From contig MHCJ01000007.1 of assembly GCA_001816585.1 (NCBI GenBank), positions 2,062 through 66,061 on the forward strand: a stretch of 64,000 nt of DNA, in the 5' to 3' direction. Of this stretch, positions 12,698 to 51,065 are shown one piece after another. The notes beneath the pieces are model-generated. The model was not told the DNA's origin and ran no database searches. It saw only the letters and a list, made by a program, of their open reading frames with translations. Position numbers and translations under genes: made by a program. Origin of the DNA: Candidatus Chisholmbacteria bacterium RIFCSPHIGHO2_01_FULL_52_32. GTDB taxonomy: Bacteria > Patescibacteriota > Microgenomatia > UBA1400 > Chisholmbacteraceae. Each line of letters starts with the position of its first letter. Positions within the stretch are counted from its first letter, which is position 1.

Positions 12698-12728
12698 AAA
12701 AAAACCGCCTCTTAAAGCGGTTTTCTTG
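12698..12728 (+). terminator. intrinsic terminator AACCGC-loop-GCGGTT plus T-run
   Basis: follows the stop of 11726..12655; preceded by an A-run, so possibly bidirectional. Confidence 0.55.
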
Positions 12729-12756
12729 TTTCTTGTTTCTTGTTACTCCTGACAGC

Positions 12757-12828: not shown

Positions 12829-14345
<1,517 letters not shown>

Positions 14346-14393
14346 AAATTTGACGCAGTCAAATCCGCCAACTGGCGGACAGACCACGTCTGA

Positions 14394-29854: not shown

Positions 29855-30042
29855 GGAACTGGTTTCAAGACTCTGCAGGTACTCTGAAACTTGGGTTCAG
29901 CTTTCTTAAGTAATTGTGAGTTTTGAAACGACTTAACTTTAACAAATTATTGTTCTCATAGATGCGGCCGCACATTTGACAACAATATTTATCGTAAACA
30001 TATATGGAATAACCAAAGGATCAACCCTTTGAGGTGTGCTTT

Positions 30043-30063
30043 CAGTCTTCAGTCTTCAGTCTT
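30043..30063. repeat. heptamer tandem repeat (CAGTCTT)x3 spanning the stop codon of the GT4 gene
   Basis: perfect 3 copies; the TGA stop lies inside the repeat. Confidence 0.8.
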
Positions 30064-31197
30064 CAATTGCCTCCTCGTAAATCCGAAACAGCTTCTTTTG
30101 CATAACAGATAGACTGAAATGCGCAAGGTAGCGCCGCCGAGCCGCCTGCCCCAACCTCCCTCTTAAGTCCGCGTCCAAAACTAGCCGTTCAAGTGCCTCC
30201 GCCAAATCGCCCACGCTTCCAGGCCGCACCAACAACCCCGTCTGTCCATCAACGACCATCTCGGGCAACGCTCCCAGCCGTGAGGCCACCACAGGAATCC
30301 CAAAGCTCATCGCCTCACAAACTACCAGGCCATACCCTTCAGCCTTCGGCGGAACATGGACCAAGATATCCGCCGCCGGGTAAAACTCCGAAACCAGCCG
30401 GTCATAGGAAACAAAATCATGCTGCGTAATCCCGTAAGATTTGTCATTTGTCATTTGTAATTTGTAATTTTTAGGCACCGGTCCCAAAATCGTCAACCGC
30501 ACCGTATCTCCCAACATCTCTCTCACTTTCCGGTATGCCTCCCACAAAATCATTCCCCCCTTCCGCTCAAACCACACTCCGGCAAAAAGTAGTCGAACCG
30601 GACCAACCTTTCGAACCGAAGGTTCCGCTCGATCCGATAGGCCCGGATAGATAACCGCGATTTTTGCGGGATCAGCTCCCAGTGCAATATGCTCCTGTTT
30701 GGCAAACTCACTCATCACCAAGAGTTTCGAGAAATTGCCCAGGGAAAGATCCTGGTCATAAACGGAAAGGAGGGAATGCATCGCCCGCCGCAATCCGTAC
30801 GTAGCCTCGATGCGAAGCCTTCCCTGACCAAAGTATTGAGAAAGCCCCCAACGATTGGGGATACTGTCCCCCATGACCACGGGAATGTGTCGCAAAGACC
30901 CCGAAAGCCGAAGTGTATACGCATGGCAGTGGACAAGATCGAACTTCCCCAAAATCTCAACATCAACGGTTCCTGCCGAAAGGGGCAGGATACGAAACTT
31001 CACCAGCGTCCGAAGAAAAGCGTGGAAGGAGCCATACCGAACCTCCCCCTTCTTAAGCGCGTCCGTATGGTGCACGTACGTCACGCCGGGTGGCGGATTG
31101 GCAAGCAGCGTCCGGGTATAGGTATTCTCCCCACCCATCAGAAACTTGAGGTTCAAAGGAACATCTGGATCGAGCGGTGAAATCAAAAGCACCCGCA
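30056..31197 (-). CDS. GT4 (group 1) glycosyltransferase
   Basis: about 380 aa; EGYGLVVCEAMSFGIPVVA motif; start assigned to ATG MRVLLISPL, with an alternative GTG at 31213; carries an internal heptamer tract. Confidence 0.85.
30439..30473. repeat. in-frame heptamer tract (ATTTGTC)x2 (ATTTGTA)x2 ATTTTTA inside the GT4 coding sequence
   Basis: 5 consecutive 7-mers encode the NYKLQMTNDK linker; the unit length is not divisible by 3. Confidence 0.8.
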
Positions 31198-31223
31198 TAA
31201 TAAAGCGCAGCACTCTGCTCTCT

Positions 31224-31272
31224 GCTATTCGCTATTCGCTATTCGCTATTCGCTATTCGCTATTCGCTATTC
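31224..31272. repeat. perfect heptamer tandem repeat (GCTATTC)x7 in the divergent intergenic or 5' region
   Basis: 7 perfect copies plus degenerate CTCTGCT flank copies; lies 10-30 bp upstream of the GT4 start codon on the minus strand and about 80 bp upstream of the rmlD-like gene. Confidence 0.9.
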
Positions 31273-31351
31273 GCTTTCAATCATATCCTATCAGACCAAC
31301 CAATAATCGTCTTTCTTGTCATACCCAGGGAAAGTATGCTACCCTGCCGCT

Positions 31352-32254
31352 ATGCGCATCCTTCTCACCGGCTCAAACTCGCTCCTCGGAAAAGCGCTTT
31401 GGGAAACAGCTCCGAAAGTATCCTCTCTCATCCTCACCTTCCTCCCTTCCGCTGAGCCAAGCCAAACACGATGGGAAACAGCACCGATGGATATCACCGA
31501 CAAAGCTGCGGTGAAACACACCCTCGCCCGCTTCAAACCCGATTGGATCATTCATTGTGCCGCCCTGTCCGATGTCGATTCCTGCGAGAAAAACCCCGAC
31601 CAAGCCTATGCCGTCAATGTCTTCGGCACGGAGAACCTCGTGAACACGGCAAAAAAGGCTGGCTTACGCTTTCTCTTTACCTCCTCAAACGGTATTTTTG
31701 ACGGTAAACGCACCCTCTATACCGAACGCGACAAGCCCCATCCGCTGCATACTTACGGAAAAACGAAGCTTGAAGCCGAACAGCTCATCACTCGCTCCAA
31801 AGTCCCATCCATAATCGTCCGTCCGAACGCCATGTATGGCTGGCCCCCCGTTGGTGCCCGCCAAAACCCGGTCACCTGGGCAGTGGAGCAGTTGAGTGAA
31901 GGCATCACCCTCGATATGGTGAGCGACACCTTCATAAGTCCGCTCTACGCGCCATCAGCGGCAGAGGCTATTTGGAAACTCGTTAAGACCGACACAAGAG
32001 GCATATACCACATCGCAGGGAAAACCCGCGTCAGCCGTTTTACGTGGACGAAGGAGATCGCCAGGGTTTTCGGCTTCAACCCCTCCTTGGTCCGGCCGGT
32101 AAAAAGTGGTTTCTTTCCGAACCTCGCACCACGCCCAAAAGACACCTCATTCTCAACTGCCCGCCTTGAACAAACCATCGATTGGAAGCCGCTCACGCTG
32201 AAACAGGGACTCATGAGAATGAAAAAAGAGTCAGATCAATTGCTCCACTGTTAA
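31352..32254 (+). CDS. dTDP-4-dehydrorhamnose reductase-like (RmlD family) NAD(P)-dependent sugar reductase
   Basis: N-terminus MRILLTGSNSLLGKAL with a Rossmann GxxGxxG; RmlD-like length; an alternative upstream ATG at 31316. Confidence 0.7.
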   Translation: MRILLTGSNSLLGKALWETAPKVSSLILTFLPSAEPSQTRWETAPMDITDKAAVKHTLARFKPDWIIHCAALSDVDSCEKNPDQAYAVNVFGTENLVNTAKKAGLRFLFTSSNGIFDGKRTLYTERDKPHPLHTYGKTKLEAEQLITRSKVPSIIVRPNAMYGWPPVGARQNPVTWAVEQLSEGITLDMVSDTFISPLYAPSAAEAIWKLVKTDTRGIYHIAGKTRVSRFTWTKEIARVFGFNPSLVRPVKSGFFPNLAPRPKDTSFSTARLEQTIDWKPLTLKQGLMRMKKESDQLLHC

Positions 32255-32308
32255 ATTGTTAAATTGCTGTAGTGAAAAAAACAATAGAACAATACAACAA
32301 TAAAACAG
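32252..32308. promoter_or_regulatory. operator-like motif pair TTAAATTGTTAAATTG ... AACAATAGAACAAT
   Basis: same bipartite motif recurs at 38426..38497; directly upstream of the GTG start of the 32316 gene. Confidence 0.45.
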
Positions 32309-32315
32309 TCAGACG

Positions 32316-38405: not shown

Positions 38406-38425
38406 TTTAAGAATTGTTGTATTGC

Positions 38426-38497
38426 TAAATTGTTAAATTGTTAAAACAATAGAACAATGAGCGAGCGCTAGTGAGCGATAACAATAGAACAATGAAC
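38426..38497. promoter_or_regulatory. operator-like motif cluster: TAAATTGTTAAATTGTTAAA, then AACAATAGAACAATGA twice (19 nt apart), the second overlapping the start codon
   Basis: shares the 14-mer AACAATAGAACAAT with 32279-32292. Confidence 0.45.
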
Positions 38498-42027: not shown

Positions 42028-42720
42028 TCAAAAGGATTGATAAGGCTTATTCCCAAAGATATAGAGCGTCCCGCAGAGCTTTTTAAAGGGAAAAAACAAC
42101 GGGCCGCGAAACACCGGGAAATTCCACTGTTCAAGTGTACGGCGAACTCCGGGAAGGGGCGGAAGCCCGTGAAGGATGGCTCCTTGAACACGTAAATCAC
42201 GAAATCCAGCCTCGAAAAGACGTTTCGCCCAGTAGCGGGATGCACGAACGTTCACATGCGTAGGGTCATCAGGAAAAATCCTCGTCGTCACCGATCGTAG
42301 CCAACCCTGGTGGTTTGGCGTCGTGATGAACAGGACGCCGCCTGGCCGGAGCACACGAAAGGCTTCGGAAAAAAGAAACATCGGAGAATGAAGATGTTCA
42401 ACAACATCAAAAATTGTTATTGCATCAAACCAATCATTTTTAAATGGAAGCCGTTGGCGAGCCACGTCTACCTTCTTAAGGACACCGTGTACTCGCCTTC
42501 TGGCTTGAGCCAGTGCGTATCCGGAAATATCAACTCCAGAGACTTTAGCCCCCCTCTTTTGCACAGAAGATAGAAAGTCCCCAAAGCCGCACCCGACATC
42601 TAACACGCGTCGCAAAGAAGCAACCTTTTCAAACAGGATCTCCGCACGGGCTTTGGAGATGAGTTCCCCCTCTCTCGATGCGTTATAAATCCGCTCAAAA
42701 TATTCCCGACCATAGTTCAT
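42028..42720 (-). CDS. class I SAM-dependent methyltransferase
   Basis: 230 aa; VLDVGCGFGDF motif I, DVVEHL, LRPGGVLFITTPN. Confidence 0.85.
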   Translation of the reverse strand: MNYGREYFERIYNASREGELISKARAEILFEKVASLRRVLDVGCGFGDFLSSVQKRGAKVSGVDISGYALAQARRRVHGVLKKVDVARQRLPFKNDWFDAITIFDVVEHLHSPMFLFSEAFRVLRPGGVLFITTPNHQGWLRSVTTRIFPDDPTHVNVRASRYWAKRLFEAGFRDLRVQGAILHGLPPLPGVRRTLEQWNFPVFRGPLFFPFKKLCGTLYIFGNKPYQSF

Positions 42721-42813
42721 AGGGTATAGGGTATAGGGTATAGGAATTAGGGTTTAGGAATTAGAAATTTGATGTCATTCGTACTGTAATTTGTTATTTG
42801 TAATTTGAAATTT
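42721..42813. repeat. two heptamer tracts: (AGGGTAT)x3 plus 4 degenerate AGGNNTT units, then (GTAATTT/GTTATTT/GTAATTT/GAAATTT)
   Basis: begins at the nucleotide after the ATG of the methyltransferase (minus strand), so it occupies the RBS and promoter region. Confidence 0.85.
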
Positions 42814-45798: not shown

Positions 45799-45931
45799 TA
45801 AGCCTTTTTAATTGCTATATTGTTACATTGTTCTACTGTTGGTAGATCAAAGATTGAGTGTTTTCAACAATATAACAGTGAAGCAATATAACAATATCTC
45901 TTTGTCTCCAATCCCTCCCTCTCCTACCTCC

Positions 45932-50990: not shown

Positions 50991-51065
50991 CCTCTCCTCT
51001 CCTCTCCTCTCCTCTCCTCTCCTCTCCGCTCCGCTCTACGCCCTACGCTCTTAGCCCTCTACCCT
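50991..51065. repeat. pentamer (CCTCT)x7, then CCGCT x2, then heptamers CTACGCC CTACGCT CTTAGCC CTCTACC in a convergent intergenic region
   Basis: perfect pentamer run; heptamers are of the same TACGCCC family as 34807 and 55281. Confidence 0.85.

Follow-up and report, generated by a model that had tools for sequence, protein, structure and literature searches.

The GT4-rmlD spacer and its heptanucleotide array

The window, as we call the whole 64-kb stretch of DNA analysed here, contains a GT4 glycosyltransferase gene and an RmlD-like NAD-dependent reductase/epimerase gene (rmlD) that diverge from a 153-bp spacer, and this spacer contains a heptanucleotide tandem array of the unit GCTATTC (Table 1). 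The GT4 protein has a Glycos_transf_1 domain (PF00534, E = 3.8e-27, 95.3 bits against a cut-off of 26.4) and a Glyco_transf_4 domain (PF13439, 28.5 bits, cut-off 28.5), and alignment with its homologues places the true start at ATG 31198 (MRVLLISP...), which they have in common. The RmlD-like protein matches RmlD_sub_bind (PF04321, E = 3.8e-58, 197.3 bits, cut-off 27). The Pfam matches and the start positions agree with the original prediction, which had placed the tract between a divergent minus-strand GT4 gene and a plus-strand rmlD-like gene. From ~18 kb on, one gene after another in the window encodes a glycosyltransferase, a methyltransferase or a large GT-C-like membrane protein.

The GT4, RmlD and MnmA proteins of the window match proteins from Candidatus Chisholmbacteria MAGs residue for residue (OGY17658.1 and others), and contig MHCM01000003.1 (1,158,385 bp) of assembly GCA_001816955.1 matches the window at 100% identity over 3.7 kb. 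More remote GT4 homologues carry the names Levy-, Curtiss- and Daviesbacteria. Judged from these sequences, the host is a Microgenomates (CPR) bacterium. The RmlD protein, used as a query against genome contigs, returned a single actinomycete locus of 28% identity. The publication that introduced the Chisholmbacteria name (PMC5079060) and the accession series point to aquifer sediment and groundwater. The 16S rRNA gene (12833-14347, minus strand) stands alone with no adjacent 23S gene, and the only tRNA of the window (Ile-GAT, 1166-1238) lies 11 kb from it. Throughout the window C outnumbers G on the plus strand, irrespective of gene orientation (GC skew about -0.15).

Direct reading and Tandem Repeats Finder (TRF) both recovered the predicted perfect run of seven GCTATTC units with degenerate flanks. 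The perfect tract has 7.4 copies with 100% matches at period 7 (TRF score 104) and consists of seven full units plus GCT, with TTCA directly after; two degenerate units, CTCTGCT CTCTGCT, precede it from 31213. Upstream of GT4, 25 nt separate the ATG from the perfect tract and 14 nt separate it from the degenerate units, while 76 nt separate the other end of the tract from the rmlD ATG. Block shuffling of the window with its composition preserved (100 shuffles) gave a top TRF score over all periods of 65, compared to 104 for the tract, which is the longest array and the sole 7-copy perfect array of the window. The pattern GCTATTCGCTATTC, allowing at most two mismatches, matched seven times in the window compared to 0.19 expected, with six of these matches inside the tract. 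Outside the tract the unit GCTATTC is not enriched (five scattered matches, five expected). A head-to-tail 7-bp unit with a length beyond chance fits the class of long simple sequence repeats with units of 5-11 bp (LSSR 5-11 class). We rejected a telomere-like or G-quadruplex reading of the heptamer units, which have no G-runs; the CCTAAAT unit of a relative (contig L020) differs from the TTTAGGG repeat.

Table 1. Positions in the window of the genes, arrays and candidate promoter elements considered here.
Feature	Position	Strand	Basis or context
Perfect (TTTCTTG)x3.3 array	12722..12744		16S rRNA 3' trailer, before the terminator hairpin; non-promoter setting
Perfect (TTCAGTC)x3.6 array	30041..30065		GT4-GT2 spacer; overlaps the GT4 stop codon
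GT4 glycosyltransferase gene, 380 aa	30056..31198	-	Pfam; metagenome gene calls; homologue alignment
Coding heptamer array in GT4 (TACAAAT-type, 4.6 copies)	30439..30470	-	Encodes loop NYKLQMTNDKS
Degenerate flanking units (CTCTGCT CTCT...)	31213..31223		In register with the array; kept in L010 and L008 alleles
Perfect heptanucleotide array (GCTATTC)x7.4	31224..31275	none	(GAATAGC)n in GT4 sense
Candidate -10 TATGAT for GT4	31280..31285	-	7 nt upstream of the array in GT4 sense; manual reading
Candidate -10 AATAAT for rmlD	31302..31307	+	Downstream of the array
Second, weaker candidate -10 TATGCT for rmlD	31335-31340	+	Downstream of the array
RmlD-like NAD-dependent reductase/epimerase gene, 300 aa	31352..32254	+	Pfam; gene calls
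Perfect (ATAGGGT)x3.7 array	42719..42744		Runs into the methyltransferase ATG (42720, minus), which has no Shine-Dalgarno sequence

Heptamer arrays in the window, in relatives and among strains

As the original prediction had noted, similar tracts recur across the locus. TRF found 19 period-7 arrays in the 64-kb window (~3 per 10 kb), compared to a mean of 1.3 and a maximum of 4 in 100 shuffles. No other period is as common, and the period-14 and period-21 rows are mostly the identical arrays. All 19 arrays differ in unit, with TTTCTTG, AACTTTG, CCATTTG, AGCTATA, TTCAGTC, ATTTGTA, AAGCTAC, CTACGCC, ATAGGGT, TGTAATT and TAAATCA among them. Arrays cover 3.9% of intergenic bases compared to 0.41% of coding bases. 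Besides those in spacers, two lie within mnmA and others within an ATP-grasp gene, a methyltransferase gene and GT4. The loop encoded by the GT4 coding array comes after a conserved LTILGPxPK motif and varies in length and sequence in every homologue. Around 46 of the 64 kb belong to a glycosylation locus, and for this reason the window has no power to reveal array enrichment near glycan genes. A pentanucleotide array, (CCTCT)x9.2 with 7.4 perfect copies, was also seen between two convergent genes (50991-51036).

The window has a second kind of repeated motif, AACAAT half-sites at 8-bp phase. The pattern AACAATNNAACAAT with at most one mismatch matched 16 times compared to 0.35 expected, and all but one of these matches fall in three intergenic clusters (32247-32309, 38413-38493 and 45811-45895). 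In each cluster the minus-strand half-sites come first and the plus-strand ones after them, in an operator-like arrangement, and the clusters lie upstream of genes for a methyltransferase (32316, plus), a double-GT4 protein (38492, plus) and a 986-aa membrane protein (45795, minus). The AACAAT motif is a better candidate than the GCTATTC tract for a regulator binding array of the glycan locus.

Six other Microgenomates loci, some of them from named Davies- and Curtissbacteria, also have period-7 arrays, at 1.1 to 12 per 10 kb compared to ~0.2 by chance. The orthologous GT4-rmlD spacer of L020, whose GT4 is 69% identical, holds (AGGGTCG)4.4, perfect (CCTAAAT)7.6 and perfect (CTATACT)4.4, units that are unrelated to GCTATTC. 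The spacer of L019 (GT4 62% identical) is 91 bp long and has no array, and in L016-L018 (GT4 67% identical) GT4 has another neighbour gene and no array upstream. Within the GT4 coding sequence, unrelated heptamer arrays occupy the same codon position of the variable loop in the window (30439-30470), L016 (3219-3253) and L020 (3798-3818). These patterns indicate that the presence of arrays tracks the array density of the lineage and a local lack of constraint, and unit sequence is not conserved between orthologous spacers. These relatives show two further features. In L016-L018 the GT4 upstream spacer (e.g., L016 2216-2487) has about seven copies, in both orientations, of the GC-rich sequences GGCGGGCAGG/CCTGCCCGCC, and in L020 and the homologues P0004 and P0010 an insert of ~11 aa (SSSAKATADRE-like) splits the array of the GT4 loop.

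Tracts of at least four GCTATTC units occur in more than 120 unrelated metagenome contigs, none of which represents this locus or shares proteins with the window. Inverted GARTRGN units lie at most 150 nt ahead of (GCTATTC)n in 36 of 80 fetched loci (mean GC 63%), forming a two-array hairpin that often adjoins a convergent gene end (e.g., L035 1390-1515, L046, L054 and L087). These hairpins, found among L021-L100, are a separate repeat family, apparently of high-GC bacteria, that is missing from the window. Four contigs of ~52-54% GC that share no proteins with the window (L036 (Ga0123356_10003316), L080, L099 and L023) are very rich in heptamer arrays of many units, with 19 period-7 arrays in the 11.8 kb of L036.

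To compare strains, contigs were gathered by exact-protein look-up across many independent assemblies. The 7-copy tract with identical flanks is present in seven further independent assemblies, or eight counting the window (ENA, JGI and NCBI), so that eight of 11 assemblies covering the site have seven copies. Over 2.6 kb, contig L010 (ERZ27254791) differs from the window only in that exactly one 7-bp unit is missing, leaving six copies. The allele of L008, which is 99.98% identical to the window on the rmlD side, combines two perfect units with degenerate ones and an insert of 31 bp, and that of L007 (99.7% identical on the rmlD side) has the locally doubled variant units GCTATCTx2 and GCCATTCx2. 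Unlike the array, the 76-bp stretch from there to the rmlD ATG is almost invariant across alleles. A second array varies in the same manner, with exactly one ACCCTAT unit deleted from the 42719 array in L149 (ERZ27254858). The one-unit deletions of L010 and L149, both in perfect arrays, are the sole indels in ~160 kb of (partly redundant) contig-to-window alignments, and both of the varying arrays sit directly upstream of the start codons of glycan-modifying genes. No frameshifted variant of a coding array was found in the contigs compared to the window, and the conserved right flank, used as a query against metagenome contigs, returned zero matches. The L008 insert (positions 75-105 of that contig) interrupts the focal array and has a 5-bp stem (GTCCT...AGGAC); neither the window nor the fetched loci have another copy, so it is not recognisable as a mobile element.

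The tract had been proposed as a substrate for slipped-strand mispairing, and the one-unit loss in L010, the L008 and L007 alleles and the L149 deletion at 42719 uphold that proposal as one about variation in nature. Whole-unit length polymorphism separates close relatives at both the focal tract (L010) and the 42719 array (L149), and uniform lengths with identical tracts everywhere, the pattern that would speak against the proposal, were not what we found across assemblies and relatives. Contigs L002, L004 and L165-L167 end within the focal or other arrays. For Logan contigs this is because the k-mer (31) is shorter than the array, and two k=141 contigs that end inside arrays may be a weak hint of heterogeneity.

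Candidate promoters and leaders around the array

The 16S promoter (TTGATT-17-TATAGT) is of textbook form, which indicates that sigma-70 rules apply to this organism. Promoters of protein genes in the window have a strong TATAAT and no recognisable -35, and in many cases just 6-7 nt separate the hexamer from the ATG. This suggests that protein-gene promoters are -10-dominated and that mRNAs are often leaderless. TATAAT or TATAAA was seen 5-7 nt before the ATG at gene starts 15906 (minus), 15974 (plus), 21574 (minus) and 52790 (minus). Many genes, GT4 and rmlD among them, have no Shine-Dalgarno sequence, though the 3' end of the 16S rRNA has CCUCC.

A first sigma-70 scan of the GT4-rmlD spacer returned nothing usable and a looser scan returned two weak matches, with no -35/-10 pair bracketing the tract. 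Our promoter and transcription-start assignments are guesses based on consensus sequences. By this reading, the best candidates are a TATGAT for GT4 and two hexamers for rmlD (Table 1). A -10-like TATTAT that overlaps the GT4 ATG was rejected as a promoter because homologues start at that ATG. If TATGAT is used, transcription would start at the border of the tract, all of which would then belong to the GT4 5' leader. In the GT4 sense TATGAT precedes the tract, and in the rmlD sense the candidates for that gene follow it, so a change in copy number would alter leader length or upstream distance and not promoter geometry.

The original prediction had repeat number changing promoter spacing and so switching expression on or off, and this part was not borne out. 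A 52-bp tract cannot be a -35/-10 spacer, the repeat neither lies between nor overlaps a -35/-10 pair, and the promoters of the organism are -10-dominated. The leader RNA folded with no extra structure compared to shuffled sequences (z = +0.48 for the GT4 leader and +0.94 for the other sense), and no Rfam match or inverted repeat was found in the tract region. The complementary arm of an HMW1A-type hairpin is accordingly absent from the tract.

Origin of the array and comparison with known systems

We consider the tract to be, more likely than not, a heptanucleotide microsatellite made by slippage, one of a genome- and lineage-wide excess of 7-bp repeats; the excess was measured in the 64-kb window and six Microgenomates loci. 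A local 7-mer would be amplified by replication slippage, and the resulting array would gain and lose units and then degenerate. Such arrays would arise at weakly constrained sequence, in intergenic spacers, 5' leaders, rRNA trailers and protein surface loops, and their distribution appears to follow constraint and not function. The focal array would most likely sit in an untranslated, unstructured GT4 5' leader, upstream of the rmlD promoter, where each unit gained or lost would change the length of the leader or the distance between the promoters by 7 nt. The effect on GT4 expression, if any, would be graded or nil and not that of an on/off promoter-spacing switch. A specific link to surface-glycan genes, as first proposed, found no support, given that arrays also occur in the 16S trailer, mnmA and protein loops and that the spacers of relatives hold unrelated arrays or none. 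The slippage reading is tempered by two observations, namely that the longest perfect array of the window lies at this site and that both varying arrays are upstream of the starts of glycan-modifying genes, and by the precedent of hmw1A, where a heptanucleotide repeat in the 5' UTR sets expression. The 7-bp preference, which none of our measurements accounts for, also counts against this reading.

A possible, if unlikely, alternative is that the tract is a selected contingency locus, where slippage acts as a tuner or switch of GT4 expression, perhaps also of rmlD, and so makes surface glycans heterogeneous within a population, either through 5'-UTR length or structure as in HMW1A or through the distance or helical phase between the divergent promoters. 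The natural variation in copy number is consistent with this, as are a long, perfect tract so close to the GT4 ATG, the -10-like TATGAT immediately upstream as at hmw1A P2 (PMC8262952), the second variable array adjoining a methyltransferase ATG in the same glycan cluster, and the L020 orthologous spacer, which is likewise full of heptamer arrays. However, arrays are found elsewhere too, in non-promoter and housekeeping settings, and the spacer has neither a -35/-10 pair to respace nor a hairpin like that of the hmw 5' UTR. The same spacer has no array in L019 and L016-L018, and seven copies in eight of 11 spanning assemblies is a narrow length distribution. CPR bacteria are ultra-small and, according to other work, probably episymbionts. 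It is doubtful, in our estimate, that heptamer arrays form a lineage-wide selected contingency system in Microgenomates or other CPR bacteria that varies surface glycans for phage escape or host switching, a system in which dozens to hundreds of 7-bp arrays may lie in the 5' leaders and loops of glycan-building enzymes. If true, this would be the first CPR phase-variation system to be described, with an unusual unit length.

The remaining explanations have far less in their favour. That the tract is a binding-site array for a DNA- or RNA-binding regulator, comparable to TAACTGA in Beggiatoaceae or STRR in cyanobacteria, is suggested by its position near a start codon and by neighbouring genes, GT4 and rmlD included, that have no Shine-Dalgarno sequence, as is the case for TAACTGA (PMC4679880). 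We regard this as very improbable because the unit is unique to this spot, every array in the window having its own, and because it differs between strains as close as 99.7% identity; it is also unrelated or absent in L020, L019 and L016. That the units are perfectly identical speaks for recent amplification and not for conserved sites, and the dispersed conserved motif of the locus is a different one, AACAAT at 8-bp phase. The conserved binding-site array, which the original prediction had named as one outcome that would overturn it, is largely refuted. We would give equally little credence to the array marking or promoting a recombination junction for the exchange of glycan-gene cassettes between strains. 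The break in similarity does coincide with the array in L008 and L007, with the GT4 side more diverged in L008 and unalignable in L007, where another heptamer array stands instead, but the other side of the break is only 43-77 nt long in these contigs, intergenic spacers are natural junctions anyway, and no recombinase or site motif lies nearby. Contig ends inside the focal or other arrays (L002, L004 and L165-L167) might raise the suspicion of an assembly or sequencing artefact, which is almost certainly wrong because independent assemblies agree, eight of them (ENA, JGI and NCBI) carrying the identical 7-copy tract and flanks.

If the tract is a product of slippage only, the heptanucleotide excess extends to a CPR genome of ~1.16 Mb, beyond large-genome hosts, and unit-by-unit turnover of arrays is visible in environmental populations. 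Heptamer arrays also help to account for contig breaks in assemblies and provide natural VNTR markers for CPR strain tracking, and they caution that a promoter-proximal repeat is not automatically a phase switch. Should copy number tune GT4 or the methyltransferase, contingency loci would be hinted at for the first time in uncultured episymbiotic bacteria. Elements of this kind are already known, and their density and unit-by-unit turnover in CPR bacteria appear to be unreported in the literature that we searched.

In H. influenzae, a (TA)n repeat in the divergent promoter region of hifA and hifB is itself the -35/-10 spacer and gives promoter-spacer phase variation. The focal tract resembles it as a simple sequence repeat in a divergent intergenic region whose length changes by slippage, and differs in being 52 bp long, in having no bracketing hexamers and in belonging to an organism whose promoters have no clear -35. 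Another parallel is the heptanucleotide repeat in the 5' UTR of H. influenzae hmw1A, a proven expression rheostat (PMC8262952, PMC12721329). That repeat abuts the P2 -10 and is transcribed, and longer repeats give lower expression (PMC8262952); the (ATCTTTC)n tracts of hmw1A and hmw2A have 11-24 or more copies and form a long hairpin with a G-rich arm that is cleaved by RNase III (PMC8262952, PMC12721329). Our tract shares the 7-bp unit upstream of a surface-related gene, the adjacent -10-like hexamer and the natural variation in copy number. Unlike hmw1A, whose control of expression depends on that hairpin (PMC12721329), it has 6-7 copies and no complementary arm (z = +0.48), and it is one of many different repeats. 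E. coli K1 neuO carries a coding heptanucleotide repeat (PMC13001214), and the coding arrays of the window (for example 30439 in GT4 and 34807) likewise lie in glycan-modifying genes where a one-unit slip would cause a frameshift; the focal tract, unlike neuO, is non-coding, and no coding array was frameshifted in the contigs compared.

Dispersed heptamers of a single unit are known from cyanobacteria (STRR), Beggiatoaceae (TAACTGA; PMC4679880) and Xanthomonas (GGGAATC; PMC4692102). Like the arrays described here they are intergenic, often precede starts without a Shine-Dalgarno sequence and vary between close relatives, but those genomes use one or a few units at many loci whereas here each locus has its own. 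The most economical account places the tract in the LSSR 5-11 class. By the summaries in PMC4679880 and PMC4692102, heptanucleotides were the most numerous class of long repeats in most genomes surveyed by Mrazek, Guo and Shah (2007), and the hosts in that survey were mainly large-genome non-pathogens such as Burkholderia, cyanobacteria, actinobacteria and Xanthomonas; Mrazek and colleagues proposed that the unit length corresponds to the 7 nt that the polymerase holds. The arrays of the window resemble that class in being perfect 7-mers beyond chance with a dominant period of 7, in being mostly intergenic, in differing in length and sequence between close relatives and in having slippage as the proposed origin; unlike the large genomes of the survey hosts, they are found in a CPR genome of ~1.16 Mb, at ~3 arrays per 10 kb.
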